This document shows, piece after piece, positions 4,792 to 61,402 of a stretch of DNA of 64,000 bases. The position numbers were made by a program, and so were the translations under genes. The notes under the pieces were generated by a model, which saw nothing but the letters and a program-made list of their open reading frames with translations, made no database searches and was not told the origin of the DNA. The number at the start of each line of letters is the position of its first letter. Position 1 is the stretch's first letter. This stretch comes from Escherichia coli (GTDB taxonomy: Bacteria > Pseudomonadota > Gammaproteobacteria > Enterobacterales > Enterobacteriaceae), in the NCBI RefSeq assembly GCF_024700885.2, contig NZ_CP117016.1. One strand, written 5' to 3'.

Positions 4792-4799
4792 AAACGTCC

Positions 4800-39696: not shown

Positions 39697-40519
39697 AGTG
39701 ACCTTTCAGCGCGTCGAGTTGCTGCAACACAAAATTCGCCAGATGCAGATAGTGATCCGGCAGGTTGTAGAGCAGGGTGGCGAAGCAGACCAGCCCCGCC
39801 AGCATGTTGATGGGAAAGCCGAGCGAAAAGAGGTTCAGCGGCGGCGCGATGCGGTTGAGCAGGCCAAAGCAGCCCTGCACAATCAGCATGATAAAGGTGG
39901 TCGGCAGCGCCAGCAGCGATGCGGACGCCAGCACCCAGCTAAAGGCCAGTGCGATGGTGCGCAGGGGTTGCGGATGCAGCGCGTTGCCAATCGGCCAGTA
40001 GGTGAAGCCCTTATACAAAACACTCACCAGCAACAGATGCCCGTCCATGGCAAAAAACAGCAGGATTGCGTAGACGTTGATTAACTCCGCCAGCACGGTG
40101 GTCGATGCGCCGCTGCTCGGGTCGTTCATCACCGCCATGCTCATCCCCATATTGAACGAGAGAATTTGCCCGGCCAGTTGCAGCGCCAGAAACAGAAACT
40201 GAAACATCAGCCCGAACAACATGCCCCATAATATTTGCTCCACCGTCAGGATCAGGCTGTTGAGCGATAGCAGGTCGTGGGGAATGGGATGGGGGATCAA
40301 CGGCGTGATGATGATTGCCAGCGCCAGCGACAAAATGATCCGCACACGCACGGTCAGGGCGCTGTTATCCAGCACCGGCACATAGCGCAGAAACGCCATA
40401 ATGCGCACGAAGGGAAACCACAGCCCCATCGCCAGATCCATCAGTTGCGTAACGTCGCTTGTACGCATCTTAATGCACCAGCAACGCGGCCTGGGTAAAC
40501 AGATGAATACACAGATCAT
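39686..40519 (-). CDS. lfiR: Flag-2 export protein, FliR homologue
   Basis: 277-aa polytopic membrane protein between the FlhB and FliQ homologues. Confidence 0.75.
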   Translation of the reverse strand: MICVFICLPRPRCWCIKMRTSDVTQLMDLAMGLWFPFVRIMAFLRYVPVLDNSALTVRVRIILSLALAIIITPLIPHPIPHDLLSLNSLILTVEQILWGMLFGLMFQFLFLALQLAGQILSFNMGMSMAVMNDPSSGASTTVLAELINVYAILLFFAMDGHLLLVSVLYKGFTYWPIGNALHPQPLRTIALAFSWVLASASLLALPTTFIMLIVQGCFGLLNRIAPPLNLFSLGFPINMLAGLVCFATLLYNLPDHYLHLANFVLQQLDALKGHYGG

Positions 40520-41497: not shown

Positions 41498-41925
41498 GGT
41501 GCCAGGTCGTTGATATCGCGGGTGTTAAACTCCAGCACGCGCAGGCCGTACTTCTCGTTGACCACCACCACTTCTGCTTTGCCCAACAGGATATTGTTTA
41601 CTTTAATATCCAGCGGCTCCCCGGCGAGCTTATCCAGCTCAATCACCGTGTCGTCGTCGATGTTAAGGAGGTCGGCTAACATGATCTCTACTGATGACAC
41701 TTCCAGCGTTAAGGTCACCGGAATGCGTTTTAGCAGCGTCATCGAGTCGGAAAAACGGTCTTCCAGGCGGGTGACCAGCGTTTCAGCGTCGGCAGATTTC
41801 GCGACAGGCGCAACTTCATCGGTGAGGCCAAAATCCCCGGCTAAAATATCTTCTTGCTTACTCATGGCTATTCTCATTTTTGCCCGCCAGCTCCGACAAA
41901 AACAGTTTGTCTTTGTCTTCCACAA
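41494..41925 (-). CDS. lfiN: Flag-2 C-ring protein, FliN homologue
   Basis: 143 aa; SpoA-like C-terminus (IDDDTVIELDKLAGEPLDIKVNNILLGKAEVVVVNEKYGLRV). Confidence 0.7.
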   Translation of the reverse strand: MWKTKTNCFCRSWRAKMRIAMSKQEDILAGDFGLTDEVAPVAKSADAETLVTRLEDRFSDSMTLLKRIPVTLTLEVSSVEIMLADLLNIDDDTVIELDKLAGEPLDIKVNNILLGKAEVVVVNEKYGLRVLEFNTRDINDLAP

Positions 41926-42709
41926 TCAGGGCGCTAAATAATTCAGATTGCCCAATCGCCACCGGGAACGTTTCTCCCAGCGAGATGGGTAAAATATCCC
42001 CGGCTTTTATCTGCGTGAGATCCGCGACATTCAGCGACAGCTCGGCGATTTTGACGTTCAGGGTCAGCGGCAGAGAGCGGATAATCTCTTTAATCAGGGC
42101 CGGTTTATTAACGGATTTCGCCACCTGCTGCGGTTTACTGTGCTCGCTGTGGCGGATCAGATTCAAAATAAAATCGGTGTGGGCGTCGTCGAGCAAAATA
42201 CGAAAACTGCTCTCTTCATCGCCCGCAAGGGTAAAGGTTAATTGATACGCCCAGTGGGTAATCACCGTGCTGCTATCCAGCTTTAATTTCAGCGCAATAC
42301 CGGAGGTTTGCAGATTAAATATCAGCGTGCAGATATCCAGCGCGAGTCGGTTTTTTAAACGAGTTTCGGTTTTGGTCGGCAGCCCGTTATGCGCTTTCGC
42401 CTCTTCAAGAGAGGACTCCAGACCATAAAAATTGCCCAGCAGCATTAACAATAAGGAGCGATCAATATCAAACGCCAGATGCCCGACCTGGGAAACCATC
42501 AGTTCGGCGTTTTTATTAATAATATCCATTTCGCAGCCAATCTTTTTTAAGGTGATATTGCTGCGATGCTTTTTGAGAAAGTAGCTGCCCAGATGCGAAT
42601 CAATCACGTCAAAATTCCCCGTAAACAGGGTCGGCAGGCGATGGTAGGGGCGTCCGAGCCGATTACCTTCTAATTTAAAGATGCCTGGCGTTTTACTGTA
42701 CTTCAGCAT
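41858..42709 (-). CDS. lfiM: Flag-2 C-ring protein, FliM homologue
   Basis: 283 aa; position upstream of the FliN homologue; C-terminal FliN-like segment. Confidence 0.65.
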   Translation of the reverse strand: MLKYSKTPGIFKLEGNRLGRPYHRLPTLFTGNFDVIDSHLGSYFLKKHRSNITLKKIGCEMDIINKNAELMVSQVGHLAFDIDRSLLLMLLGNFYGLESSLEEAKAHNGLPTKTETRLKNRLALDICTLIFNLQTSGIALKLKLDSSTVITHWAYQLTFTLAGDEESSFRILLDDAHTDFILNLIRHSEHSKPQQVAKSVNKPALIKEIIRSLPLTLNVKIAELSLNVADLTQIKAGDILPISLGETFPVAIGQSELFSALIVEDKDKLFLSELAGKNENSHE

Positions 42710-42887
42710 GGCTTACTTTCTCTGCTGTAATGGTATGGGTGTTTCTGTGCACGCAAATCCGGCTGTGACACAAGGTGAGGTATTAAATAGAGGGGGAGTG
42801 AAAGGGGCAAATTATTAATAGGATGAAAAAATAATTAATCGATTAATTGCTTAATGGGAGTGATTTTCGCCAATCAGTCTGCGGTCT

Positions 42888-42930
42888 GTCCCCTCGCCCC
42901 ATCCGGGGAGAGGGTTAGGGTGAGGGGGCA
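42888..42930. repeat. GC-rich palindromic intergenic element in the lfiM-lafK gap
   Basis: gtcccctcgcccc atcc ggggagagggttagggtgaggggg; same motif family as 33046-33090. Confidence 0.35.
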
Positions 42931-43081
42931 TCACAGATGTCCAAATTAACAGTATTAATATCTAACTAATTGTTTACCATCAAATAATATTTTTATTATC
43001 GTTTAATTCGAACTTGTTAATCCCGCCGGTGATACGCTTCAGAACATCCTGTTTTCTGTCGCTACTTATATCGTTCACCCT

Positions 43082-43349
43082 ATGTCTGAACTTATTGCAA
43101 CTGCCGCTTCCAGCATTAACGCTTTTACTCTGGCAAAGCGTGTCGCCGCATTTAACGTGCCGGTGCTCATTCAGGGCGAAACCGGCGCGGGCAAAGAATG
43201 CGTGGCAAAATATATTCACACCGTCGCCTTTGGTGAAAATGATAACGCGCCCTATATCGGCGTGAACTGCGCGGCGATCCCGGAAAACATGCTGGAAGCT
43301 ACATTATTTGGCTACGACAAAGGCGCATTTACCGGCGCAATTGCCAGCG
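43082..43349 (+). pseudogene. lafK: 5' fragment of a sigma-54-dependent activator (LafK-like) truncated by IS1
   Basis: AAA+ sigma-54 activator motifs (VLIQGETGAGKECVAKYIH...NCAAIPENMLEATLFGYDKGAFTGA); the reading frame runs into the IS1 inverted repeat and terminates. Confidence 0.7.
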
Positions 43350-44117
43350 GGTGATGCTGCCAACTTACTGATTTAGTGTATGATGGTGTTTTTGAGGTGC
43401 TCCAGTGGCTTCTGTTTCTATCAGCTGTCCCTCCTGTTCAGCTACTGACGGGGTGGTGCGTAACGGCAAAAGCACCGCCGGACATCAGCGCTATCTCTGC
43501 TCTCACTGCCGTAAAACATGGCAACTGCAGTTCACTTACACCGCTTCTCAACCCGGTACGCACCAGAAAATCATTGATATGGCCATGAATGGCGTTGGAT
43601 GCCGGGCAACCGCCCGCATTATGGGCGTTGGCCTCAACACGATTTTCCGCCATTTAAAAAACTCAGGCCGCAGTCGGTAACCTCGCGCATACAGCCGGGC
43701 AGTGACGTCATCGTCTGCGCGGAAATGGACGAACAGTGGGGATACGTCGGGGCTAAATCGCGCCAGCGCTGGCTGTTTTACGCGTATGACAGGCTCCGGA
43801 AGACGGTTGTTGCGCACGTATTCGGTGAACGCACTATGGCGACGCTGGGGCGTCTTATGAGCCTGCTGTCACCCTTTGACGTGGTGATATGGATGACGGA
43901 TGGCTGGCCGCTGTATGAATCCCGCCTGAAGGGAAAGCTGCACGTAATCAGCAAGCGATATACGCAGCGAATTGAGCGGCATAACCTGAATCTGAGGCAG
44001 CACCTGGCACGGCTGGGACGGAAGTCGCTGTCGTTCTCAAAATCGGTGGAGCTGCATGACAAAGTCATCGGGCATTATCTGAACATAAAACACTATCAAT
44101 AAGTTGGAGTCATTACC
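43350..44117 (+). mobile_element. insAB: IS1 insertion sequence (768 bp) encoding InsA and InsB
   Basis: Terminal inverted repeats ggtgatgctgccaacttactgat (left) and atcaataagttggagtcattacc (right); InsA ORF 43405..43680, InsB ORF 43599..44102. Flanking 9-mers differ (ttgccagcg vs ggaatgcct). Confidence 0.9.
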
Positions 44118-44118
44118 G

Positions 44119-44274
44119 GAATGCCTGACGGAAATGAAATTTGAAGATTTGCGCGGCATGAAAATATCCGCCATCCGCAAACTGATTTCTGATGCGCTAA
44201 AGAAAGATCTTCAGCGTCGCAAAATGAGCGCACCGTATAAGGATTTGCTGGTGAAAAAAGTGGTCTTCCAGTAA
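44119..44274 (+). pseudogene. 3' remnant of a Flag-2 gene, possibly the FliL-like lafF
   Basis: Open frame from the IS1 boundary encoding ...ISAIRKLISDALKKDLQRRKMSAPYKDLLVKKVVFQ stop; no start codon; sits directly upstream of lafS. Confidence 0.4.
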
Positions 44275-44293
44275 TCACCAGGCGGATATAAAC

Positions 44294-45010
44294 ATGCTAC
44301 AGGACGTATTCGAGTCAGAAGAATTTGCTGCCGCGCCGGTATTAACCCCGCAGCAGGAGAGCCACTACTTGCAGGCCTATTTACCGTTGGTGCGTAAAGT
44401 GGTGCGGCAACTTGCCCCGCAGTGTAATTGCATTATTGATCGTCAGGATATGGAACAAATGGCGTTAATGGGGCTGCTTAATGCCATTCGTCGCTACGGG
44501 CTGCCGGACGAAGGTTTTGCGGGCTATGCCGTGCACCGTATTCGCGGCGCGATCCTGGATGAGCTGCGCGCTCTCGACTGGCGACCGCGCCAGCTGCGAC
44601 AGAAATATCATCAGATGAAAGATCTGATACGCGAAACGCGTAAAAAACTGGGGCACGAACCGGAGTGGTCAGAACTGGCCGTGGAAGGGATTTCGCATGA
44701 AGATTATATCGAATATCAGCAACTGGAAGGGGCGGAAACGCTCGCCAGCCTTGACGAACTGCTGAACGGCGAAGGGCCAGGCATTCCACTTGTTGGCAGG
44801 GAACTGGAAGATCAGTTTGTCACCCAGCAAATGCTGCAATACGCGCTTTCACTATTAAGCGAAAAAGAGCAACTGATCCTCTCCATGTATTACCAGCATG
44901 AGATGAATCTCAAAGAGATTGCGCTGGTATTAGGGCTAACCGAGGCCCGAATTTGTCAACTGAATAAACAGATCGCGCAGAAAATTCGTGATTTTGTCTA
45001 TCCGAATTAA
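44294..45010 (+). CDS. lafS: Flag-2 sigma-28-type sigma factor (FliA homologue)
   Basis: 238 aa; sigma-70 family regions 2 and 4 (HRIRGAILDELRALDW; NLKEIALVLGLTEARICQL). Confidence 0.8.
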   Translation: MLQDVFESEEFAAAPVLTPQQESHYLQAYLPLVRKVVRQLAPQCNCIIDRQDMEQMALMGLLNAIRRYGLPDEGFAGYAVHRIRGAILDELRALDWRPRQLRQKYHQMKDLIRETRKKLGHEPEWSELAVEGISHEDYIEYQQLEGAETLASLDELLNGEGPGIPLVGRELEDQFVTQQMLQYALSLLSEKEQLILSMYYQHEMNLKEIALVLGLTEARICQLNKQIAQKIRDFVYPN

Positions 45011-45022
45011 AGTGAAGAAATC

Positions 45023-45886
45023 ATGCAAAAAATATTAGGTTTACTGGTGGTGCTCGGCTGCGTATTTGGCGGTTATTTTGAAGCGGGCGGGCAACTAGTG
45101 GCTATCTGGCAACCGGCGGAGATGATCATTATTTTGGGTGCCGGTTTCGGGGCGATGATTATTGGTAATCCGAAACATGTGCTGAAAGAGATTGCTCATC
45201 AAATTAAAGGCGTGATCAGTAAAAAACAGCTCGGGCCGGAGTTTCAGCGTCAGCTATTAATGTGCCTGTATGAGTTGCTCGAAATGGTACAAAACGGCGG
45301 CCTGCGCATGTTGGATCAGCATATTGAGCAGCCGGAAGAGAGCACCGTTTTCCAGAAATACCCGCTGGTGTTAACCCAGAAGCGGCTGGTGACCTTTATT
45401 GCCGATAACTTTCGCCTGATGGCGATGGGCAAAATCGACGCCCACGAACTGGAAGGCATTCTCGATCAGGAGCTGGATACCGCCGAAGAGTCGCTGCTCA
45501 CGCCGTCGCGCTCGCTGCAACGTACCGCCGAAGCGATGCCGGGATTTGGTATTTGCGCGGCGGTGCTGGGCATCATCATCACCATGCAGTCGATTGATGG
45601 ATCTATCGCCCTGATTGGCCTGAAAGTGGCGGCGGCTCTGGTGGGGACGTTTTTAGGCGTCTTTATCTGCTACTGCCTGATGGACCCGCTTGCCAACGCC
45701 ATGGAACAACAGGCGCGGGCGGAACATTCTTTGCTGGAATGTGTGCGTACCGTGCTGGTGGCGCAGGCGGGCGGTAAACCGACGCTGCTGGCGGTAGACG
45801 CCGGGCGTAAGCTGCTGCATCTAGCGTCCAAACCGACCTTCGCCAACCTCGACGCGTGGGTGAATGCGATGCTGGAGCAAGAATAA
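45023..45886 (+). CDS. lafT: Flag-2 stator protein, MotA homologue
   Basis: 287 aa; four-TM MotA-like architecture. Confidence 0.85.
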   Translation: MQKILGLLVVLGCVFGGYFEAGGQLVAIWQPAEMIIILGAGFGAMIIGNPKHVLKEIAHQIKGVISKKQLGPEFQRQLLMCLYELLEMVQNGGLRMLDQHIEQPEESTVFQKYPLVLTQKRLVTFIADNFRLMAMGKIDAHELEGILDQELDTAEESLLTPSRSLQRTAEAMPGFGICAAVLGIIITMQSIDGSIALIGLKVAAALVGTFLGVFICYCLMDPLANAMEQQARAEHSLLECVRTVLVAQAGGKPTLLAVDAGRKLLHLASKPTFANLDAWVNAMLEQE

Positions 45887-45888
45887 GC

Positions 45889-46812
45889 ATGAGAAAGACG
45901 GGCAACCGCCGCGAGCGTGGGGCAAAAACCACCATCGTCCGGCGGCAGATCAAAAAGAATCATGCCGGGCATCACGGCGGGGCGTGGAAGGTGGCGTTCG
46001 CCGACTTTACTTTGGCAATGATGGCGCTATTTATGACGCTGTGGATTGTCAACAGCGTCAGTAAATCCGAGCGTGAAAGCATTATCGCCGCGCTGCACGG
46101 GCAGTCGATTTTCAATGGCGGCGGGTTGTCGCCGTTAAATAAAATCAGCCCGTCTCATCCGCCAAAACCTGCCACCGTGGCGGTGCCGGAAGAGACGGAG
46201 AAAAAAGCGCGTGACGTCAATGAGAAAACGGCGCTGCTGAAGAAGAAATCAGCCACTGAGCTTGGCGAGCTGGCGACCAGTATCAACACCATTGCCCGTG
46301 ATGCACATATGGAAGCGAATCTGGAGATGGAGATTGTTCCCCAGGGACTGCGCGTGCTGATTAAAGATGACCAGAACCGCAATATGTTTGAACGCGGCAG
46401 CGCACAGATTATGCCGTTCTTTAAAACTTTGCTGGTGGAGCTCGCGCCAGTGTTCGACTCGCTCGATAACAAAATTATTATTACCGGGCATACCGATGCG
46501 ATGGCCTACAAAAACAATATCTACAACAACTGGAACCTTTCGGGCGATCGCGCGCTTTCGGCTCGTCGGGTGCTGGAAGAGGCCGGAATGCCGGAAGATA
46601 AAGTGATGCAGGTGAGCGCGATGGCGGACCAGATGCTGCTGGACGCGAAAAATCCGCAAAGCGCGGGCAACCGACGCATTGAGATTATGGTGCTGACCAA
46701 AAGTGCGTCCGATACGCTGTATCAATACTTTGGTCAGCATGGGGATAAAGTGGTGCAGCCGCTGGTGCAAAAGCTGGATAAGCAGCAGGTGCATTCGCAG
46801 CGAACGCGCTAG
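45889..46812 (+). CDS. lafU: Flag-2 stator protein, MotB homologue
   Basis: Likely start at MRKTGNRRERG (45889; track ORF begins 45856); single TM helix and OmpA-like C-terminal domain (NWNLSGDRALSARRVLEEAG). Confidence 0.85.
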   Translation: MRKTGNRRERGAKTTIVRRQIKKNHAGHHGGAWKVAFADFTLAMMALFMTLWIVNSVSKSERESIIAALHGQSIFNGGGLSPLNKISPSHPPKPATVAVPEETEKKARDVNEKTALLKKKSATELGELATSINTIARDAHMEANLEMEIVPQGLRVLIKDDQNRNMFERGSAQIMPFFKTLLVELAPVFDSLDNKIIITGHTDAMAYKNNIYNNWNLSGDRALSARRVLEEAGMPEDKVMQVSAMADQMLLDAKNPQSAGNRRIEIMVLTKSASDTLYQYFGQHGDKVVQPLVQKLDKQQVHSQRTR

Positions 46813-46850
46813 ATGCTGAATCTTTACGCATTTCTCAAACCCTGAAATCA

Positions 46851-46866
46851 CTGTATACTTTACCAG
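46851..46866 (+). promoter_or_regulatory. LexA (SOS) box upstream of dinB
   Basis: CTGTATACTTTACCAG matches the CTGT-N8-ACAG consensus, 17 nt upstream of the dinB start. Confidence 0.7.
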
Positions 46867-46882
46867 TGTTGAGAGGTGAGCA

Positions 46883-47938
46883 ATGCGTAAAATCATTCAT
46901 GTGGATATGGACTGCTTTTTCGCAGCGGTGGAGATGCGCGACAATCCCGCCCTGCGCGATATCCCTATTGCTATTGGCGGCAGCCGCGAACGTCGGGGGG
47001 TGATCAGCACCGCCAATTATCCCGCGCGTAAATTTGGCGTACGTAGCGCTATGCCGACAGGGATGGCGCTCAAATTATGCCCACATCTCACCTTGCTTCC
47101 GGGGCGCTTTGACGCCTACAAAGAAGCCTCAAATCATATCCGTGAAATCTTCTCGCGCTACACCTCGCGTATTGAACCGTTGTCACTGGATGAAGCCTAT
47201 CTCGATGTCACTGATAGCGTCCATTGCCACGGTTCTGCGACCCTCATCGCCCAGGAAATCCGCCAGACGATTTTCAGCGAGCTGCAACTGACGGCGTCTG
47301 CGGGCGTGGCACCAGTAAAGTTTCTCGCCAAAATCGCCTCCGACATGAATAAACCCAACGGCCAGTTTGTGATTACGCCGGCAGAAGTTCCGGCATTTTT
47401 ACAAACCTTACCACTGGCAAAAATCCCCGGCGTCGGCAAAGTCTCGGCGGCAAAACTGGAAGCGATGGGGCTGCGGACCTGCGGTGATGTACAAAAGTGT
47501 GATCTGGTGATGCTGCTTAAACGCTTTGGCAAATTTGGCCGCATTTTGTGGGAGCGTAGTCAGGGGATTGACGAACGCGATGTTAACAGCGAACGGTTGC
47601 GAAAATCCGTCGGCGTGGAACGCACGATGGCGGAAGATATTCATCACTGGTCTGAATGTGAAGCGATTATCGAGCGGCTGTATCCGGAACTTGAACGCCG
47701 TCTGGCAAAGGTGAAACCTGATTTACTGATTGCTCGCCAGGGGGTGAAATTAAAGTTTGATGATTTTCAGCAAACCACTCAGGAGCACGTCTGGCCGCGG
47801 CTGAATAAAGCTGATCTAATCGCCACCGCGCGTAAAACCTGGGATGAACGCCGCGGCGGGCGCGGTGTGCGACTGGTGGGGCTGCATGTGACGTTGCTTG
47901 ACCCTCAAATGGAAAGACAACTGGTGCTGGGATTATGA
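46883..47938 (+). CDS. dinB: DNA polymerase IV (Y-family)
   Basis: 351 aa; [33 protein letters not shown]. Confidence 0.95.
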
Positions 47939-47989
47939 TGTATACTATTATGTCTATTCTGGTGTGCATTATTATGAGGGGATCACTGT

Positions 47990-48283
47990 ATGCATCGAAT
48001 TCTCGCTGAAAAATCGGTCAATATCACTGAGTTACGTAAAAACCCAGCTAAATACTTTATTGATCAACCGGTTGCGGTTCTTTCTAATAATCGCCCCGCA
48101 GGATATCTCTTAAGTGCCAGCGCATTCGAAGCGTTAATGGACATGCTTGCTGAACAAGAGGAGAAAAAACTGGTTAAGGCGCGCTTCCGTCCGAGTGCCG
48201 CAAGATTAGAGGAAATTACACGCCGCGCTGAACAATATCTTAATGATATGACGGATGATGATTTCAATGACTTTAAGGAATAA
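47990..48283 (+). CDS. yafN: Antitoxin YafN (Phd/YefM family)
   Basis: 97 aa; position and sequence match yafN in the dinB operon. Confidence 0.85.
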   Translation: MHRILAEKSVNITELRKNPAKYFIDQPVAVLSNNRPAGYLLSASAFEALMDMLAEQEEKKLVKARFRPSAARLEEITRRAEQYLNDMTDDDFNDFKE

Positions 48284-48285
48284 GG

Positions 48286-48684
48286 ATGCGGGTATTCAAA
48301 ACAAAACTTATTTGCCTGCAACTTACAGCAGAGGAACTTGATGCGTTAACGGCGGATTTTATTTCCTATAAGCGTGACGGTGTTTTGCCAGATATATTTG
48401 GTCGCGATGCACTCTACGACGACTCGTTTACCTGGCCATTAATCAAATTTGAGCGAGTTGCTCATATTCATCTGGCAAATGTGAATAATCCATTTCCGCC
48501 ACAGTTGCGCCAATTCAGCAGAACGAATGACGAAGCGCATTTGGTATATTGTCAGGGTGCGTTTGATGAGCAAGCATGGTTGCTCATTGCCATTCTGAAA
48601 CCTGAACCTCATAAACTGGCTCGAGATAACAACCAAATGCATAAAATTGGGAAAATGGCAGAAGCGTTTCGCATGCGTTTTTGA
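48286..48684 (+). CDS. yafO: Ribosome-dependent mRNA interferase toxin YafO
   Basis: 132 aa, 2 nt after the yafN stop. Confidence 0.85.
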   Translation: MRVFKTKLICLQLTAEELDALTADFISYKRDGVLPDIFGRDALYDDSFTWPLIKFERVAHIHLANVNNPFPPQLRQFSRTNDEAHLVYCQGAFDEQAWLLIAILKPEPHKLARDNNQMHKIGKMAEAFRMRF

Positions 48685-48693
48685 ATTTATATT

Positions 48694-49146
48694 ATGAATA
48701 ACATACAAATAAGAAACTATCAGCCTGGCGATTTTCAGCAACTATGCGCTATTTTCCTTAGAGCGGTTACGATGACCGCCAGTCAGCATTATTCACCACA
48801 ACAAATTGCCGCCTGGGCGCAGATTGACGAATCTCGCTGGAAGGAGAAACTCGCGAAATCACAAGTATGGGTTGCGATCATTAATGCACAACCGGTTGGT
48901 TTTATTTCCCGCATTGAACACTATATCGATATGTTATTTGTTGACCCTGAATACACCCGCCGTGGGGTTGCCAGCGCTTTGTTAAAACCTTTGATTAAGT
49001 CTGAATCCGAACTTACGGTGGACGCAAGCATAACCGCAAAACCCTTTTTTGAACGTTATGGTTTTCAGACAGTTAAGCAGCAGCGCGTTGAATGCAGGGG
49101 AGCGTGGTTTACTAATTTTTCTATGCGATATAAACCGCAACATTAA
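48694..49146 (+). CDS. yafP: GNAT-family acetyltransferase YafP
   Basis: 150 aa; GNAT motif (RRGVASALLK). Confidence 0.8.
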   Translation: MNNIQIRNYQPGDFQQLCAIFLRAVTMTASQHYSPQQIAAWAQIDESRWKEKLAKSQVWVAIINAQPVGFISRIEHYIDMLFVDPEYTRRGVASALLKPLIKSESELTVDASITAKPFFERYGFQTVKQQRVECRGAWFTNFSMRYKPQH

Positions 49147-49378
49147 ATTCAGCTTGCAATGAAAATAACACCCGCCTGGTATGTGCGCGTTTTCTTATTC
49201 CACAAACTGCAAGGAGGTAAATCATGACAAATCCTTTATCAATGACTCTTTGCAGACCTTTCCAGGATTAATTCTTTTTTCTTGCCCTGGATTCGTCTGC
49301 CATTTCCTGATTTTTATATTTATATACTCTAAATAATTCGAGTCGCAGTACATGCAACTTGAAGTATGACGAGTATAA

Positions 49379-49945
49379 ATGGGATGGTACATGGGCAAAT
49401 CTATTCGTCCCTTATCCGATGCGGTATTTACCATCGCATCTGATGGCCTGTGGATCGAGAGTTTAGCGATCCAACAATTACACACCACGGCAAATTTACC
49501 CAACATGCAGCGCGTAGTAGGGATGCCAGATTTACACCCCGGACGCGGCTACCCGATTGGCGCAGCGTTCTTCTCCGCAGGCCGTTTTTACCCGGCAAGA
49601 CGTCGCGGTAACGGTGCTGGAAACAGAAACGGGCCGCTACTCTGACACGCTGCGTTCGGCGCTGATTTCTCTGGATGGCGATAACGCATGGGCATTAAGC
49701 GAAAGTTGGTGCGGCACTATTCAGTGGATTTGTCCGAGTCCGTATCGGCCTCATCATGGGCGCAAAAACTGGTTTCTGGGCATGCTAACAAGCGGCTGGC
49801 GCGATTGCTGATTGCCTGGAAGCTGGAACAACAGCAACAGGAAAATAGCGCGGCGCTGAAATCGCAGTGGCGAATGTTCCATCATCAAATTGAACGTGGC
49901 AACCCGCGACGGACATTTACAGGGATGGCTTTTATCGAAGGATAA
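49379..49945 (+). pseudogene. Remnants of an RtcB-like gene (ykfJ) and a release-factor homologue (prfH)
   Basis: Short ORFs 49379..49645 ([17 protein letters not shown], RtcB-like) and 49688..49945 (release-factor-like C-terminus) in different frames; neither full length. Confidence 0.55.
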
Positions 49946-50001
49946 TGAAGGATGAAACTGCCGGAAGGCGATTAAACGCCATCCGGCAGCAAATCAAATA
50001 A

Positions 50002-51459
50002 TTACTTCGCCGGAATTTCTTTCAGCAGTTCAGTCAGCAGTGTCCAGTAATGACCAACGCTTTCGATATGAACCTGCTCATCCGGAGAGTGCGGACCGGT
50101 GATGGTTGGCCCGATAGAAACCATGTCCATTTCCGGATACGGTTTTTTAAACAGACCACATTCCAGGCCCGCGTGGATAATCTGGATGTTCGGCGTCTTG
50201 TTGAACAGACGCTGATAGGTTTCACGCACCAGGTGCATCACCGGAGAATTAGCGTCCGGCTGCCAGCCTGGATACGCGCCTTTCGCTTCGGTTTTCGCGC
50301 CAGCCAGTTTACCCAGCGAATCCAGCATGCTCACCACGTAGTCTTTACCGCTGTCGATCAGAGAACGGATCAGGCAGTGAATTTCTACGTTATTGTCAGT
50401 CATGGTCACCACACCGACGTTCAGGGAGGTTTCGACCACACCTTTTGCCACGTCGGAGTTGCGGATCACACCGTTCGGGGTAGCGTTCAGCAGACGAATA
50501 AAGGTATCGCGAGATTTCGCAATCAGGGCAGCTTTATCGTTCGCAACAGAGTCCAGCAGCAATGCCAGATTTTTCTCTTTCTCTGCCAGCTCGTTTTTCA
50601 GGATCTCCTGATAGGTATTCACCAGAGATTTCAGTGCGTCGACTTTATCAGCTGCGACAGCAATCGTCGCAAAGGCTTCACGCGGGATGGCGTTACGCAG
50701 TGTGCCACCGTTGAAATCGATAAGGCGCAGGTCCAGCTCTTCCGCATGACCCGCCAGGAAGCGCACCAGCAGTTTGTTGGCATTACCCAGGCCAACGTGG
50801 ATTTCACCGCCGGAGTGACCGCCTTTCAGGCCTTTTAAGGTTAACTTGAAGGTTTCAAAGCCAGCTGGAACCGCTTCACGATCTAAATGCAGGTTGGAGG
50901 TAAAGTCGATACCCCCCGCGCAACCCATGTAGATTTCACCTTCCTCTTCGGAGTCGGTGTTAATCAGAATATCAGCCTGCAACCAGTTGCTCTGTAAGCC
51001 AAAAGCACCATCCATACCGGCTTCTTCGGTCATGGTCAGCAGCACTTCCAGCGGGCCGTGAACCACGTTTTCGTCAGCCAGAACCGCCAGCGCAGACGCC
51101 ATACCAATGCCGTTATCCGCACCCAGCGTGGTGCCGCGCGCTTTAACCCATTCGCCATCAATATAAGGCTGGATAGGATCTTTAGTGAAGTCATGCACAG
51201 TGTCGTTATTTTTCTGCGGCACCATATCGAGGTGGGCCTGCAAGACGACCGGTTTACGATTTTCCATACCTGCGGTAGCAGGTTTACGAATCAGGATATT
51301 ACCTACCTGATCGCGTTCGACATGGAAACCTTTCTCTTTTGCCCAACCAACAATGTATTCAGCGAGTTGCTCTTCATGATAGGACGGGTGAGGAATAGAA
51401 CAGATTTTGGCAAAAATATCCCACAGCGGCTGTGGAGATAATTGAGACAGTTCAGACAC
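50002..51459 (-). CDS. pepD: Aminoacyl-histidine dipeptidase PepD
   Basis: 485 aa, M20-family dipeptidase; MSELSQLSPQPLWDIFAKICSIPHPSYHEE. Confidence 0.95.
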   Translation of the reverse strand: MSELSQLSPQPLWDIFAKICSIPHPSYHEEQLAEYIVGWAKEKGFHVERDQVGNILIRKPATAGMENRKPVVLQAHLDMVPQKNNDTVHDFTKDPIQPYIDGEWVKARGTTLGADNGIGMASALAVLADENVVHGPLEVLLTMTEEAGMDGAFGLQSNWLQADILINTDSEEEGEIYMGCAGGIDFTSNLHLDREAVPAGFETFKLTLKGLKGGHSGGEIHVGLGNANKLLVRFLAGHAEELDLRLIDFNGGTLRNAIPREAFATIAVAADKVDALKSLVNTYQEILKNELAEKEKNLALLLDSVANDKAALIAKSRDTFIRLLNATPNGVIRNSDVAKGVVETSLNVGVVTMTDNNVEIHCLIRSLIDSGKDYVVSMLDSLGKLAGAKTEAKGAYPGWQPDANSPVMHLVRETYQRLFNKTPNIQIIHAGLECGLFKKPYPEMDMVSIGPTITGPHSPDEQVHIESVGHYWTLLTELLKEIPAK

Positions 51460-51719
51460 GTTAAGTCTCCTTGTCGATCACCCGCAAAACAGTATTGCAG
51501 GTCACAGGGTTAGCAGAAAATGTTGTCAACACAAGACAGGCTTGCGAGATATGTTTGAGAATACCACTTTATCCCGCGTCAGGGAGAGGCAGTGCGTAAA
51601 AAGACGCGGACTCATGTGAAATACTGGTTTTTAGTGCGCCAGATCTCTATAATCTCGCGCAACCTATTTTCCCCTCGAACACTTTTTAAGCCGTAGATAA
51701 ACAGGCTGGGACACTTCAC

Positions 51720-52178
51720 ATGAGCGAAAAATACATCGTCACCTGGGACATGTTGCAGATCCATGCACGTAAACTCGCAAGCCGACTGATGCCTTCTGAA
51801 CAATGGAAAGGCATTATTGCCGTAAGCCGTGGCGGTCTGGTACCGGGTGCGTTACTGGCGCGTGAACTGGGTATTCGTCATGTCGATACCGTTTGTATTT
51901 CCAGCTACGATCACGACAACCAGCGCGAGCTTAAAGTGCTGAAACGTGCAGAAGGCGATGGCGAAGGCTTCATCGTTATTGATGACCTGGTGGATACCGG
52001 TGGTACTGCGGTTGCGATTCGTGAAATGTATCCAAAAGCGCACTTTGTCACCATCTTCGCAAAACCGGCCGGTCGCCCGCTGGTTGATGATTATGTTGTT
52101 GATATCCCGCAAGATACCTGGATCGAACAGCCGTGGGATATGGGCGTCGTATTCGTCCCGCCAATCTCCGGTCGCTAA
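51720..52178 (+). CDS. gpt: Xanthine-guanine phosphoribosyltransferase
   Basis: 152 aa; PRPP-binding motif [14 protein letters not shown]. Confidence 0.95.
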
Positions 52179-52269
52179 TCTTTTCAACGCCTGGCACTGC
52201 CGGGCGTTGTTCTTTTTAACTTCAGGCAGGTTACAATAGTTTCCAGTAAGTATTCTGGAGGCTGCATCC

Positions 52270-53514
52270 ATGACACAGGCAAACCTGAGCGAAACCCTGT
52301 TCAAACCCCGCTTTAAACATCCTGAAACCTCGACGCTAGTTCGCCGCTTTAATCACGGCGCACAACCGCCTGTGCAGTCGGCCCTTGATGGTAAAACCAT
52401 CCCTCACTGGTATCGCATGATTAACCGTCTGATGTGGATCTGGCGCGGCATTGACCCACGTGAAATCCTCGACGTCCAGGCACGTATTGTGATGAGCGAT
52501 GCCGAACGTACCGACGATGATTTATACGATACGGTGATTGGCTACCGCGGCGGCAACTGGATTTATGAGTGGGCTACCCAGGCGATGGTGTGGCAACAAA
52601 AAGCCTGTGCGGAAGAAGATCCGCAACTCAGTGGTCGTCACTGGCTGCATGCGGCTACGTTGTACAACATTGCCGCCTATCCTCATCTGAAAGGAGATGA
52701 CCTGGCCGAGCAAGCGCAGGCTTTGTCAAACCGCGCCTATGAAGAGGCCGCCCAGCGTCTGCCGGGCACCATGCGGCAGATGGAGTTTACCGTACCCGGC
52801 GGTGCGCCCATCACCGGCTTTTTGCATATGCCGAAAGGGGATGGCCCGTTCCCGACAGTATTAATGTGTGGTGGTCTGGATGCGATGCAGACGGACTATT
52901 ACAGCCTGTATGAACGTTATTTTGCGCCGCGCGGCATTGCGATGCTGACTATTGATATGCCGTCGGTGGGCTTTTCTTCAAAATGGAAGCTCACCCAGGA
53001 CTCCAGCCTGTTGCATCAGCACGTCTTAAAGGCGCTGCCTAACGTACCGTGGGTAGATCACACTCGCGTCGCGGCCTTTGGTTTCCGTTTCGGCGCTAAC
53101 GTTGCCGTACGTCTGGCATACCTTGAATCGCCGCGTCTGAAAGCGGTTGCCTGTCTTGGTCCGGTAGTTCATACCCTGTTGAGTGATTTTAAGTGCCAGC
53201 AACAGGTGCCGGAAATGTATCTTGACGTTCTGGCGAGTCGTTTGGGGATGCATGATGCTTCCGACGAAGCGTTGCGCGTGGAGCTGAATCGCTATTCATT
53301 AAAAGTGCAAGGATTGCTGGGACGTCGCTGCCCAACGCCAATGTTATCAGGCTACTGGAAGAACGATCCGTTCAGCCCGGAAGAGGACTCACGCTTAATC
53401 ACCTCATCATCTGCTGACGGTAAATTATTAGAGATCCCATTTAACCCAGTGTATCGGAATTTTGACAAAGGTCTTCAGGAAATCACCGACTGGATCGAAA
53501 AACGATTGTGTTAA
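52270..53514 (+). CDS. frsA: Esterase FrsA (fermentation/respiration switch protein)
   Basis: 414 aa; alpha/beta-hydrolase fold. Confidence 0.9.
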
Positions 53515-53973
<459 letters not shown>

Positions 53974-53980
53974 GTGAAAT

Positions 53981-54005
53981 GTGCCGGATGCATCACATCC
54001 GGCAA
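53981..54005. terminator. Bidirectional hairpin between convergent crl and phoE
   Basis: Inverted repeat gccggatg ... catccggc between the two convergent stops. Confidence 0.5.
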
Positions 54006-54011
54006 TATCCA

Positions 54012-55073
54012 TTAAAACTGATAGGTCATGCCAACCGCGACAATATCATCATTATTGATGTTCAGCTTATTATCGCTATCCAGTTGGTTTATTTTATAAT
54101 CAACAAATGCCGACATATTTTTGTTGAAATAATACGTAGCACCAACATCGATATAATTGACCAGATCTTCATCACCGATGCCTTCAATATCTTTCCCTTT
54201 CGATAAGACATAACCCAGCGACGGACGTAGACCAAAGTCAAACTGGTATTGGGCGACCGCTTCAAAGTTCTGTGTCTTATTGGCAAAGCCGCCAGTTATT
54301 GGCGTCATTTTGCGTGTTTCAGAATAGAAAGTTGCCAGATAAATATTATTGGCATCGTATTTCAGACCTGTTGCCCATGCTTCTGCACGCTTGCCTGTGC
54401 CACGGCTTTGCAGGTTCTGCTCGTTGGTGCGATCAGAGTTGGTATAGGCTCCACTGATGGCGAAATCGCTGCCACCAAAGTCATATGTCAATGACGTGCC
54501 GAAGCCATCGCCGTTTTGCTTTTTAACGTCGCGGTTTTCGTTTTTCCCTTGATATTGCAGGGTTAAGTTCAGACCATCGATAACGCCGAAGAAGTCGGTG
54601 TTCCTATACGTCGCCAGACCGCTGGCACGTTTGGTCATAAAGTTGTCGGTCTGTGCGGAGGAGTCGCCACCAAATTCCGGGAACATATCGGTCCAGGCTT
54701 CCACGTCATACAGCGCGCCCAGGTTACGACCATAATCGAAAGAACCCAAATCTTTATATTTCAACCCGGCAAAAGCGAGACGTGTTTTTTGCTGTGCAGT
54801 ATCACTCTCTGCTTTATTACCGGCAAACTCTGCTTCCCAGCGACCATAACCGGTCAATTGATCGTTAATTTGTGTTTCGCCTTTAAAACCAAAACGGATA
54901 TAACTCTGGTCGCCATCTTTACTGTCATTATCACTCATATAATGCATGGCTTTAACTTTGCCATAGACATCCAGTTTATTACCGTCTTTGTTATATATTT
55001 CTGCGGCCTGTACGGATGCAGATGCCACAATGCCCATCACCACTAATGCCAGAGTGCTCTTTTTCATTTTCAT
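54012..55073 (-). CDS. phoE: Phosphate-starvation outer-membrane porin PhoE
   Basis: 353-aa ORF; signal peptide [20 protein letters not shown]; beta-barrel ending in F. Confidence 0.9.
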
Positions 55074-55140
55074 TCCTGATTTTAATTAACGCGCGAATAT
55101 TCAGCGGGAGAGTCCCGTTGAAAACAGGAAAGTTTTTAAC

Positions 55141-55166
55141 CTGAGATTGTTAAAGATATATTACAG
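55141..55166 (-). promoter_or_regulatory. Candidate PhoB binding site (Pho box) upstream of phoE
   Basis: Minus-strand sequence ctgtaatatatctttaacaatctcag contains CTGTAAT-like repeats, ~70-95 nt upstream of the phoE start. Confidence 0.45.
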
Positions 55167-55354
55167 ATTAATAATATTCTTAAAATGTGGTAATTTATTA
55201 AATCTGTAATAAAAGCGTAAACAACTGCCGCTACGCTTGCTGATCCCGCGCAACAAAACGCCATGCTTTGCTCGCAGATGGTTGGCAACCGACGACAGTC
55301 CTGCTAAAACGTTCGTTTGATATCATTTTTCCTAAAATTGAATGGCAGAGAATC

Positions 55355-56458
55355 ATGAGTGACAGCCAGACGCTGGTGGTAAAACTCGGCACCAGTGTGC
55401 TAACAGGCGGATCGCGCCGTCTGAACCGTGCCCATATCGTTGAACTTGTTCGCCAGTGCGCGCAGTTACATGCCGCCGGGCATCGGATTGTTATTGTGAC
55501 GTCGGGCGCGATCGCCGCCGGACGTGAGCACCTGGGTTACCCGGAACTGCCAGCGACTATCGCCTCGAAACAACTGCTGGCGGCGGTAGGGCAGAGTCGA
55601 CTGATTCAACTGTGGGAACAGCTGTTTTCTATTTATGGCATTCACGTCGGGCAAATGCTGCTGACCCGTGCTGATATGGAAGACCGTGAACGCTTCCTGA
55701 ACGCCCGCGACACCCTGCGTGCGTTGCTCGATAACAATATCGTTCCGGTAATCAATGAGAACGATGCTGTCGCTACTGCAGAGATTAAGGTCGGCGATAA
55801 CGACAATCTTTCTGCGCTGGCGGCGATTCTGGCGGGTGCCGATAAACTGTTGCTGCTGACCGATCAAAAAGGTTTGTATACCGCTGACCCGCGCAGCAAT
55901 CCGCAGGCAGAACTGATTAAAGATGTTTACGGCATTGATGACGCACTGCGCGCGATTGCTGGCGACAGCGTTTCAGGCCTCGGAACTGGCGGCATGAGTA
56001 CCAAATTGCAGGCCGCAGACGTGGCTTGCCGTGCGGGTATCGACACCATTATTGCCGCGGGCAGCAAGCCGGGCGTTATTGGTGATGTGATGGAAGGCAT
56101 TTCCGTCGGTACGCTGTTCCATGCCCAGGCGACTCCGCTTGAAAACCGTAAACGCTGGATTTTCGGTGCACCACCTGCGGGTGAAATCACGGTAGATGAA
56201 GGGGCAACCGCCGCCATTCTTGAACGCGGCAGCTCCCTGTTGCCGAAAGGCATTAAGAGCGTAACTGGCAATTTCTCGCGTGGTGAAGTCATCCGCATTT
56301 GCAACCTCGAAGGTCGCGATATCGCCCACGGCGTCAGTCGTTACAACAGCGATGCATTACGCCGCATTGCCGGACACCACTCGCAAGAAATTGATGCAAT
56401 ACTGGGATATGAATATGGCCCGGTTGCCGTTCACCGTGATGACATGATTACCCGTTAA
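55355..56458 (+). CDS. proB: Glutamate 5-kinase
   Basis: 367 aa from [19 protein letters not shown] (track ORF begins upstream at 55268). Confidence 0.95.
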
Positions 56459-56469
56459 GGAGCAGGCTG

Positions 56470-57723
56470 ATGCTGGAACAAATGGGCATTGCCGCGAAGC
56501 AAGCCTCGTATAAATTAGCGCAACTCTCCAGCCGCGAAAAAAATCGCGTGCTGGAAAAAATCGCCGATGAACTGGAAGCACAGAGCGAAATCATCCTCAA
56601 CGCTAACGCCCAGGATGTTGCTGACGCGCGTGCCAATGGCCTTAGCGAAGCGATGATTGACCGTCTGGCACTGACGCCCGCACGGCTGAAAGGCATTGCC
56701 GATGATGTGCGCCAGGTGTGCAACCTCGCCGATCCGGTGGGGCAGGTAATCGATGGTGGCGTGCTGGACAGTGGCCTGCGTCTGGAGCGCCGTCGCGTGC
56801 CGCTGGGTGTGATTGGCGTGATTTATGAAGCGCGGCCGAACGTGACGGTTGATGTCGCTTCGCTGTGCCTGAAAACCGGTAACGCAGTGATCCTGCGTGG
56901 TGGCAAAGAAACCTGTCGCACTAACGCTGCAACGGTGGCGGTGATTCAGGACGCCCTGAAATCCTGCGATTTACCGGCAGGCGCAGTACAAGCGATTGAT
57001 AATCCTGACCGCGCGCTGGTCAGTGAAATGCTGCGTATGGATAAATACATCGACATGCTGATCCCGCGTGGTGGCGCTGGCCTGCATAAACTGTGCCGCG
57101 AACAGTCGACGATCCCGGTGATCACAGGTGGTATAGGCGTATGCCATATTTATGTTGATGAAAGTGCAGAGATCGCTGAAGCCCTGAAAGTAATCGTCAA
57201 CGCGAAAACCCAGCGTCCGAGCACATGTAATACGGTTGAAACGTTGCTGGTGAATAAAAACATCGCCGATAGCTTCCTGCCTGTGTTAAGCAAACAGATG
57301 GCTGAAAGCGGTGTGACGTTACACGCCGATGCTACCGCACTGACGCAATTGCAGGCAGGTCCCGCGAAGGTGGTTGCTGTTAAAGCTGAAGAGTATGACG
57401 ATGAGTTTCTGTCATTAGATTTGAACGTCAAAATCGTCAGCGATCTTGACGATGCCATCGCCCATATTCGTGAACACGGCACACAACACTCCGATGCGAT
57501 CCTGACCCGCGATATGCGCAACGCCCAGCGTTTTGTTAATGAAGTAGATTCATCCGCTGTTTACGTTAACGCCTCTACGCGTTTTACCGACGGCGGCCAG
57601 TTTGGACTGGGCGCGGAAGTGGCGGTAAGCACACAAAAACTCCACGCGCGTGGCCCAATGGGGCTGGAAGCGCTGACCACTTACAAGTGGATCGGCATTG
57701 GTGATTACACCATTCGTGCGTAA
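56470..57723 (+). CDS. proA: Gamma-glutamyl phosphate reductase
   Basis: 417 aa; follows proB by 11 nt. Confidence 0.95.
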
Positions 57724-57837
57724 ATAAAACCGGGTGATGCAAAAGTAGCCATTTGATTCACAAGGCCATTGACGCATCGCCCGGTTAGTTTTAACCTTGT
57801 CCACCGTGATTCACGTTCGTGAACATGTCCTTTCAGG

Positions 57838-57913
57838 GCCGATATAGCTCAGTTGGTAGAGCAGCGCATTCGTAATGCGAAGGTCGTAGGTTCGACTCCT
57901 ATTATCGGCACCA
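57838..57913 (+). tRNA. thrW: tRNA-Thr (anticodon CGU)
   Basis: 76-nt sequence gccgatatagctcagttggtagagcagcgcattcgtaatgcg...ggttcgactcctattatcggcacca with cloverleaf features and CGT in the anticodon loop. Confidence 0.9.
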
Positions 57914-58008
57914 TCACCTAGTTTTCCCAAGTCAACCCACATCAACAAAATCATTTAAAAACATATATATTACGTTGTTTTCATACGTTTGAGGTCAACC
58001 CTTGTCTC

Positions 58009-59268
58009 TTGAAATCAACACGCGGTTGGGGGCACAATCAGGGGCATGTTCTGTTCGGTCTAGGAAATGTGCCCCCAATGATGCTGAATGCCCGCAAGGT
58101 TGAAGCTGCGAAAGGAAAAGAGAAGAGCTACAAGCTGTTTGATGGAGGTGGCCTATATCTTCAGGTCGAACCTAATGGCTCGCGTTACTGGCGTATGAAA
58201 TACCGTTTTGCTGGTAAAGAGAAACGATTGTCCTTTGGTGTTTATCCAACAGTCACACTTGCTGATGCCAGACAAAAACGAGAAGACGCGAAGAAACTAC
58301 TCGCAGCAGGTGAAGATCCCGGCGAAGTCAAAAAAGCCAAAAAGCAGGCTTTAAATGCAGCGATTGAGACACTTAACCCATTCAGAGAAGTGGCGTTAGA
58401 GTGGCACAAAATGAAATCACCCAAATGGTCTGAGGGCTATGCTTCCGACATCATTGAGGCATTCGAGAAAGACATTTTCCCGCATATTGGGCACAGACCT
58501 ATAGCTGATATTCAGCCCCTTGAACTGCTTGAAGTTCTGAGATTGATAGAAGCTCGAGGCGCTATGGAGAAAGCGAAGAAAGTCCGTCAGCGATGCGGTG
58601 AAGTTTTTCGCTATGCCATCGTAACGGGTAGGGCAATCTACAATCCGGCACCGGATCTTGCCAGTGCGATGCAAGGACATGAAGCAGTCCACTATCCATT
58701 CCTCAAAGCCAACGAACTACCGGAGTTCTTTAATGCCCTTAATTCTTATTCAGGAAGTCCAATTGTATTGTTGGGGGCGCATTTACTTATCCTGACAGGT
58801 CTACGAACTGGAGAACTACGAGCAGGTGAGTGGCGAGAGGTGGATTTTGATAATGCGGTGTGGGAGATCCCAAAAGAACGTATGAAAATGCGTAGGAGCC
58901 ATATTGTCCCGTTGTCAAAACAAGCATTATCCCATCTCAAAAGTTTGAAAGAACTAACTGGGAACTACCCGCTGATGTTCCCTGGACGCAACGATCCTAG
59001 CAAATTTATGAGTGAAGCAAGCATTAATCAGGTGTTTAAACGTATTGGATATGCAGGGCGTGTTACGGGGCATGGTTTCAGGCATACGATGAGTACAATC
59101 CTACATGAGAAAGGATTTAACAGCGCTTGGATTGAAACCCAGCTTGCTCATTCGGACAAAAACTCTATTCGTGGAATTTATAACCATGCCCAATATCTCG
59201 AAGGGAGAAGAGAAATGATGCAATGGTATGCTAATTATTTATCTGAGCTAATTGGTACTCATAAATGA
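58009..59268 (+). CDS. int: P4-type tyrosine integrase
   Basis: 419 aa; N-terminal arm-binding region (LFDGGGLYLQVEPNGSRYWRMKYRFAGKEKRLSFGVYP), C-terminal catalytic region (HGFRHT...YNHAQY); starts 95 nt after the tRNA. Confidence 0.9.
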   Translation: MKSTRGWGHNQGHVLFGLGNVPPMMLNARKVEAAKGKEKSYKLFDGGGLYLQVEPNGSRYWRMKYRFAGKEKRLSFGVYPTVTLADARQKREDAKKLLAAGEDPGEVKKAKKQALNAAIETLNPFREVALEWHKMKSPKWSEGYASDIIEAFEKDIFPHIGHRPIADIQPLELLEVLRLIEARGAMEKAKKVRQRCGEVFRYAIVTGRAIYNPAPDLASAMQGHEAVHYPFLKANELPEFFNALNSYSGSPIVLLGAHLLILTGLRTGELRAGEWREVDFDNAVWEIPKERMKMRRSHIVPLSKQALSHLKSLKELTGNYPLMFPGRNDPSKFMSEASINQVFKRIGYAGRVTGHGFRHTMSTILHEKGFNSAWIETQLAHSDKNSIRGIYNHAQYLEGRREMMQWYANYLSELIGTHK

Positions 59269-60089
59269 ATATTTTAAAAATTAATAATACTGATTCTCTG
59301 CTCAGAGATTACTACCAGTTGGATGAAGCTTCAGAAAAAATTGGTTGTAGTGAAAAGGATATACTCTGGTTTGCCAGAGAACGAGATGTAGAGCTATGCA
59401 TGGAATTCCATGATGATGAGTATGATGTTTCATGTGGTTTGAAGATTGATGGTCAAATGGATGAGTTCTTATCTAATCTGAAATATTTACCACGAGATAG
59501 AAATGGCAATATTATGTTGTCAGACTTAAGTTCTATAAGAATCCCTGATGAAGATAATTTAATTGATAAAAATGGTTTTATTCGATGTTTCATATCCGGT
59601 TTATGGGCTGTTGATTATGAATATAAAGATCTGTTAGTTAAGCATGAGGGGCAACCGGATTCCTGGCCTATTCATTTTCTACTGGCGGGTACGCCTAATA
59701 TAAATTGTAAGGTAATTCTTTATGTAAATTATGATGAAAAAGAAAATTATTATCTTTTTGAGGTTTTGTGGATTACAAAGGTACAGATTCAAAAATTCAT
59801 TGATATAGTCTTATGCGAACAAAAGCGGATAAAAAACGCCAATAAATATAAATCACAATCTGAGGCGCAAAAACAAAAACATGCTGTTCCTCGAGCTGAA
59901 ATACTCATGGCTATTATTTCGCTCTATCATCGTGATATGAGGCTAAGAAGAGAGAGTCCAGCAGCGATAGCTGATTATCTTTTTCAACATGCCAGTGAGT
60001 TCTGGCCTAAGACCGGAGAACCGCCTTTGAGCTATGATACTGTTGTTAGTTTGCTACGTAGTTGCATGAAAAACACTAAGTTTAACTAA
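59265..60089 (+). CDS. Hypothetical island cargo protein, AT-rich
   Basis: 274-aa ORF whose ATG overlaps the integrase stop (ATGA); N-terminal segment DYYQLDEASEKIGCSEKDILWFARE may be an excisionase-like HTH; the rest shows no motif I recognise. Confidence 0.55.
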   Translation: MNILKINNTDSLLRDYYQLDEASEKIGCSEKDILWFARERDVELCMEFHDDEYDVSCGLKIDGQMDEFLSNLKYLPRDRNGNIMLSDLSSIRIPDEDNLIDKNGFIRCFISGLWAVDYEYKDLLVKHEGQPDSWPIHFLLAGTPNINCKVILYVNYDEKENYYLFEVLWITKVQIQKFIDIVLCEQKRIKNANKYKSQSEAQKQKHAVPRAEILMAIISLYHRDMRLRRESPAAIADYLFQHASEFWPKTGEPPLSYDTVVSLLRSCMKNTKFN

Positions 60090-60214
60090 ATATTAACAAT
60101 TATTGTGGCTAATGATTTTGGATTTTTTTCATTAGTCACATTTTTCTCATTTATAACCTATGTTTTAATTTTCCGTGTTGAAGCCAATAGACTTAGATAA
60201 ACGGAGAATGATGA

Positions 60215-60421
60215 ATGTTATCTAAACATGATAATACTACTTTGCAACGACCTTCAATGGATTCTCTGATCGATATGAAGTTTATTACTTCCGATTGTTT
60301 ATTAAGTGATAAATGGATTTATCGATTGATTTCTCTGAATCGCTTTCCAAAACCTATAAAAATAGGTCGGATGTCACGATGGCGCGCTGCTGATTATTAT
60401 AAGTGGCGAGATGGGTTTTAA
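60215..60421 (+). CDS. alpA: AlpA-family phage transcriptional regulator
   Basis: 68 aa; HTH pattern (YRLISLNRFPKPIKIGRMSRWRAADYYKW). Confidence 0.6.
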   Translation: MLSKHDNTTLQRPSMDSLIDMKFITSDCLLSDKWIYRLISLNRFPKPIKIGRMSRWRAADYYKWRDGF

Positions 60422-60537
60422 GAAAACTCAGGTCAACATTTTGAGGGAATGAGAAATAAGGCAAGAGCAATTAATAAAGGGAATAGATTATCACCTACTC
60501 CCTAAGCCTTAATTGATAGTTAGTAATATTTAACTGA

Positions 60538-61371: not shown

Positions 61372-61402
61372 CAAAATACCGCTGAAAACGGAGTAATCCA
61401 CG

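Follow-up and report, generated by a model that had tools for sequence, protein, structure and literature searches.

Results and discussion

Remnants of rtcB2 and prfH between yafP and pepD

The region between yafP and pepD in the Escherichia coli DNA analysed here (a stretch of 64,000 nucleotides, hereafter the window) almost certainly carries a non-functional pseudogene pair of the rtcB2-prfH operon, destroyed by two microhomology-flanked deletions of 1027 and 169 bp (deletions 1 and 2). The rtcB2-prfH pseudogene pair is already known as ykfJ/prfH of K-12, and this lineage adds one 169-bp deletion to it. The initial annotation of the window, made from the sequence without database searches, had proposed a decayed RtcB/PrfH two-gene module at this position. 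The proposal was borne out, since an intact pair occupies exactly this site in E. coli M19 and in about half of the genomes. The locus comprises the following features (M19 coordinates refer to the M19 locus sequence L003):

46883–47938: dinB, on the E. coli chromosomal segment of the window
47990–48283: yafN, toxin-antitoxin pair with yafO, inside the dinB-yafP operon
48286–48684: yafO, toxin-antitoxin pair with yafN
48694–49146: yafP, 5′ neighbour of the rtcB2-prfH remnant
49330–49378: two outer ends of a presumed ERIC-type intergenic repeat, directly upstream of the rtcB2 start
49379–49645, plus strand: ORF of 88 aa, from the mechanical ORF list, between yafP and pepD
49557–49811, plus strand: ORF of 84 aa, same list, between yafP and pepD
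49688–49945, plus strand: ORF of 85 aa, same list, between yafP and pepD
49391–49597, plus strand: rtcB2 remnant (K-12 name ykfJ), codons 1–69 of 379
49591–49597: junction of deletion 1, 1027 bp gone relative to M19 (4500–5526)
49598–49783, plus strand: prfH middle remnant, codons 34–94, without a start codon of its own
49780–49783: junction of deletion 2, 169 bp gone relative to M19 (5713–5881)
49784–49945, plus strand: prfH C-terminal remnant, codons 152–204 and TAA stop
49958–49989: GC-rich hairpin within the 56 bp that separate the prfH stop codon from the convergent stop codon of pepD
50002–51459, minus strand: pepD, 3′ neighbour, convergent with the prfH remnant and followed by gpt and frsA

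The three ORFs were assigned by hmmscan against the NCBIfam models. Residues 5–73 of the ORF at 49379–49645 matched positions 1–69 of 379 of the RtcB equivalog NF007153 (E = 4.1e-30), and the same ORF matched TIGR03073, release_rtcB (E = 2.1e-28). Both downstream ORFs matched the PrfH model TIGR03072, the one at 49557–49811 at positions 31–94 of 200 (E = 1.7e-26) and the one at 49688–49945 at positions 143–200 (E = 1.1e-15). As expected of fragments, the RtcB2 remnant scored 105 bits against NF007153, far under the curated whole-protein cut-off of 407, and both PrfH pieces fell under the TIGR03072 whole-protein cut-off of 166.65 bits. At these E values, the similarity to RtcB and to release factors that the initial annotation had asserted is significant, and the RtcB-like N-terminal peptide quoted in it is present in the window. 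A Pfam scan of the three ORFs yielded a sub-threshold match of the first 38 positions of RtcB (PF01139, E = 3.6e-5, 23.6 bits against a cut-off of 27) and no match for the PrfH pieces, so that the NCBIfam equivalog models were needed to identify the fragments. The superfamily PF01139 is common to the window fragment and to RtcB1, the RtcR-regulated tRNA/RNA repair ligase of the rtcBA operon. RtcB1 belongs to another subfamily, however, and the window fragment fits the prfH-linked models NF007153 and TIGR03073 far better.

In a PDB sequence search, the prfH middle piece was identical in 61 of 61 residues to residues 34–94 of E. coli PrfH in the structure determined on the damaged ribosome (PDB 7SA4, chain 8); the 69-residue RtcB2 fragment had no match among solved structures at E ≤ 0.001. 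Furthermore, the genome of E. coli strain 1190 is 100% identical over 49100–50050 (megablast), and its RefSeq/PGAP annotation treats the equivalent of 49391–49597 as a pseudogene ‘RNA ligase RtcB family protein’ and the equivalent of 49593–49945 as a pseudogene prfH, ‘frameshifted; incomplete; missing N-terminus’.

These assignments refine the picture in several respects. An RtcB N-terminus and a release-factor C-terminus had been described as the only fragments left; both are real, but the remnant consists of three pieces, the middle PrfH fragment having been overlooked. Nor do the two described fragments lie in different frames. The rtcB2 remnant and the prfH C-terminal remnant are read in one phase (coordinate mod 3 = 2), whereas the middle piece lies in another frame (coordinate mod 3 = 0). 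Finally, the start must be moved from 49379 to the homologous ATG at 49391, which corresponds to residue 5 of the ORF and to model position 1 and agrees with the start in PGAP and in M19.

Two deletions account for the loss of the operon

At the same yafP-pepD site, E. coli M19 has rtcB (379 aa) and prfH (204 aa) in intact form, joined by a 4-base stop/start overlap (ATGA, L003 5429–5432). Within the genes, BLAST, MAFFT and direct reading of the junctions revealed two gaps in the window relative to M19, of 1027 and 169 bp, and no others. The initial annotation had suggested counting the inactivating lesions against intact pairs, and the count is thus two. Identity to M19 was 94.7% at the nucleotide level for RtcB2 codons 1–69 (65 of 69 amino acids identical), 97.3% for PrfH codons 34–94 (60 of 61) and 95.1% for PrfH codons 152–204 (51 of 53), and the surviving pieces showed no nonsense codons and no small indels relative to M19. 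Taken together, both deletions explain all of the 1196 bp missing from the 1751 bp of the operon (68%), leaving 18% of RtcB2 and 56% of PrfH, the latter split over two frames. The intact operon (ATCC25922, CFT073, M19; PDB 7SA4) and the window therefore represent orthologous DNA at the same locus, with pieces of 95–97% nucleotide identity, a value that owes as much to the young age of E. coli lineages as to any other cause. In contrast to the intact operon, the remnant has neither catalytic centre, nor the stop/start overlap for translational coupling, and hence cannot work like the intact system.

Deletion 1 takes out RtcB2 codons 70–379, including the catalytic histidine H294, the ATGA overlap and PrfH codons 1–33. 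The order rtcB-then-prfH is kept, but the overlapping stop/start is lost inside the 1027 bp. The junction is marked by an imperfect microhomology of 6–7 bp (CCGGCA/CCGACA). RtcB2 codon 69 is joined to PrfH codon 33/34 in a different frame, and past the junction rtcB is read out of register until a stop at 49643–49645. A deletion of about 1000 nt from the C-terminal part of the upstream gene to the N-terminal part of RFH was described for K-12, W3110 and O157:H7 by Baranov et al. (2006, PMC1586002), who found the operon uninterrupted in CFT073, 042 and UTI89; Tian et al. (2022, PMC9304027) also document this first deletion. The K-12 ykfJ/prfH pseudogene pair (b0235/b0236 region) has the site between yafP and pepD, deletion 1 and RtcB2 codons 1–69 in common with the window. 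Since the junction sequence TTTTTACCCGGCAAGACGTC is identical in the window and in K-12, deletion 1 is the same event as the K-12 ykfJ/prfH deletion, one found also in O157:H7 and in about half of the species.

A cluster of four substitutions within 7 bp (49576–49582, TCTGTTGGT to TCCGCAGGC) was noted 9–15 bp upstream of the deletion 1 junction. Of the four, one changes an amino acid (V63A in the RtcB2 remnant), and the cluster is private to the window lineage relative to both K-12 and M19. The cluster looks like a multi-nucleotide event (templated or patch repair) rather than a set of independent SNPs.

Deletion 2 removes PrfH codons 95–151 and shifts the frame; its junction carries a 4-bp microhomology (GCAT, 49780–49783). 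The lost codons include the GGQ motif, which corresponds to residues 120–122 of intact PrfH with Q122 as the glutamine. K-12 keeps the 169-bp segment, so that the window is more damaged than K-12. No description of this GGQ-removing deletion was found in the cited literature on the operon, and conceptually it is trivial. We propose that the locus decayed in two steps: the 1027-bp deletion would have created the out-of-frame joint between RtcB2 and PrfH, and the 169-bp deletion would then have removed the GGQ-containing segment and shifted the frame.

A complete PrfH would be encoded by a single ORF of about 204 codons with a start of its own; here codons 1–33 are deleted and the rest lies in two frames. 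RF2 genes use programmed +1 frameshifting, and with this precedent one might imagine that recoding, as in prfB, stitches the two PrfH pieces into an active factor. The alignment refutes such recoding, as the DNA for PrfH residues 1–33 and for residues 95–151 with the GGQ motif is physically absent and the intact alleles consist of one uninterrupted ORF. We thus regard recoding as having practically no chance of being correct.

Consequences for the ribosome repair module

Baranov et al. recognised prfH and the upstream RtcB-like gene as a conserved two-gene operon (PMC1586002). In the intact module, PrfH recognises 70S ribosomes in which colicin E3-type or CdiA-CT(ECL) ribotoxins have cleaved the 16S rRNA between A1493 and G1494. 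It enters the A site of such a ribosome and, through its GGQ motif, releases the nascent peptide, which allows the subunits to come apart. The cut 16S rRNA is then sealed in the dissociated 30S subunit by RtcB2 in a GTP-dependent reaction. Protection was abolished in RtcB2-H294N and PrfH-Q122E mutants, and the substrates of RtcB1 and RtcB2 are mutually exclusive (PMC9304027). Strain ATCC25922, which has the intact operon, is resistant to colicin E3; BW25113, where the operon is truncated, is sensitive, and knocking out the remnants there has no effect (Maviza et al. 2022, PMC9223846).

As both H294 and Q122 are physically deleted from the window, the module cannot work, and the sequence together with the published genetics argues strongly for a non-functional remnant. 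The strain would accordingly lack RtcB2-PrfH activity and should be as sensitive as K-12 to colicin E3-type toxins, and the remnant DNA is probably drifting neutrally. For annotators, this means that the strain is predicted to resemble K-12 in having no RtcB2-PrfH protection from colicin E3 and CdiA-CT ribotoxins, and to be sensitive to both.

The 88-codon ORF at 49379–49645 and the two ORFs of about 85 codons are still open, and some peptide might conceivably be translated from them. An improbable alternative to mere decay is that a product of these frames, either the 88-aa RtcB N-terminus fusion peptide (the equivalent of K-12 ‘YkfJ’) or a truncated PrfH peptide, has been co-opted for a new role. 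The open frame 49379/49391–49645 and the persistence of the deletion 1 allele in about 49% of complete E. coli genomes would be in line with such a role, and truncated K-12 PrfH could be over-expressed, albeit in inclusion bodies (a reviewer of Baranov et al., PMC1586002). However, in the one assay that addresses this module, knocking out the truncated genes in BW25113 had no phenotypic effect (PMC9223846), and 12% of genomes carry the further 169-bp frameshifting deletion, which would be unexpected were the PrfH part under selection. Moreover, the fusion peptide has just one RtcB motif left, and a consensus scan of 49100–50050 revealed no promoter-like site, including no sigma-70-like match.

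In a wider form of the same idea, either the fusion ORF created by deletion 1 (RtcB2 residues 1–69 plus a 15-residue out-of-frame tail) is expressed with a new role, or the loss of the module in the K-12/O157 half of the species was selected and not neutral. We give this little credence. If the loss had been selected, for instance on account of the cost of ribosome repair in settings with few E3-type toxins, deletion 2 with its frequency of 12% would simply mark the ongoing decay of a useless prfH part.

Distribution of the alleles in E. coli

The alleles were counted in a set of 5426 complete E. coli genomes, in 5418 of which the yafP-pepD locus is present (megablast, query 49100–50050). Deletion 1 was carried by 2669 genomes (about 49%), counted as one-place alleles covering at least 80% of the window query, and the 1027-bp segment was present in 2715 (about 50%). 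We used the coverage count because a 48-nt query across the deletion 1 junction under-counted, with 497 full-length matches; the four-SNP cluster 9–15 bp away breaks the 28-base seed. The corresponding 48-nt query for deletion 2, whose flanks are too short to seed on undeleted DNA, detected the junction in 659 of 5426 genomes (12%). This number agrees with a cross-check by difference, as the 169-bp segment is present in 4756 genomes, including K-12, and 5418 minus 4756 gives 662. The locus thus occurs in three states: intact (about 50%), with deletion 1 only (about 37%) and with both deletions (about 12%).

Every deletion 2 locus inspected among the sampled loci also had deletion 1, and the sampled intact-type matches all retained the 169 bp. 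This distribution fits an order in which deletion 1 came first and deletion 2 later. The frequencies also bear on whether the deletions could be assembly or sequencing artefacts in a genome that really carries an intact pair. Such an explanation is vanishingly unlikely: an identical 951-bp sequence was found in an independent complete genome, the deletion 2 junction recurs in 659 and the deletion 1 allele in 2669 complete genomes, and deletion 1 has been documented in K-12 since 2006 (PMC1586002). The locus offers a clean presence/absence polymorphism that is usable as a lineage marker, and a textbook case of stepwise pseudogene decay through microhomology-mediated deletion.

Neighbouring genes, repeats and signals

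The initial annotation had pointed out that the lost function sits beside a toxin-antitoxin operon. The adjacency of yafNO is factual, but no evidence of a functional connection was found. The yafNO pair is itself a presence/absence polymorphism, and the number of genomes that carry it (2846 of 5426) is close to the number of deletion 1 carriers. A link between yafNO and the loss of rtcB2-prfH was rejected on counter-examples in both directions among the sampled loci, namely M19, which has an intact rtcB-prfH and no yafNO, and DJH_183sputum, which has both deletions and no yafNO. In both genomes dinB and yafP overlap directly.

The repeat at 49330–49378 is one that we take to be of the ERIC type, on the basis of ERIC primer sequences. 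Its central part, 72 bp in K-12, is absent from the window and from M19 (a gap of 72 columns in the MAFFT alignment). The extra K-12 segment matched the ERIC1R and ERIC2 primers with one mismatch each and the window did not; one match to the ERIC end motif was found at 49349–49371. All four combinations of presence or absence of the ERIC core and of deletion 2 are found among the genomes (alleles of 951, 1025, 1121 and 1193 bp), which implies recombination or recurrent gain or loss.

Downstream of the prfH stop, a 32-nt hairpin, CTGCCGGAAGGCGATTAAACGCCATCCGGCAG, spans 49958–49989, and the fold of 49946–50001 was calculated at –25.1 kcal/mol (ViennaRNA). The hairpin is probably a shared bidirectional terminator or a REP-like element. 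A terminator consensus scan of 49100–50050 returned two weak sites, no more than shuffled sequences give, and did not report the hairpin.

Wider context of the window and strain 1190

Relative to strain 1190, the window showed 99.995% identity, limited to 44118–64000; the assumption that the window equals strain 1190 throughout was therefore ruled out. An IS1 element lies at 43350–44117 between truncated FliM/FliN-type and truncated FliL-type genes of the Flag-2 (lateral flagella) cluster, with flanks of 41500–43349 and 44118–46812. Compared with strain 1190, 31,796 bp of Flag-2 genes are missing from the window, and the loss looks like an IS1-mediated deletion. The IS1/Flag-2 junction region was covered to at least 80% in 4 of 5426 genomes, among which MLI114 (NZ_CP117013) matches at 100%. 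The intact Flag-2 cluster of strain 1190 harbours a type II restriction-modification pair (cytosine methyltransferase and endonuclease) between flgA and flgM, as well as a RelE/ParE toxin-antitoxin pair near lafA. Both pairs lie inside the 31.8 kb that are absent from the window (37607–40324 of the strain 1190 sequence L007 was noted).

At the other end, a tRNA-Thr gene (57838–57913) is followed by a P4-type integrase (58078–59268), assigned by identity with the strain 1190 annotation. The island behind the integrase runs to the end of the window at 64000 and contains an HTH regulator, an Icd-like division inhibitor, a DUF5375 gene and a TOPRIM/DUF927 primase-like gene. The region 57838–64000, at the thrW site, is apparently an island of the satellite or cryptic-prophage type.
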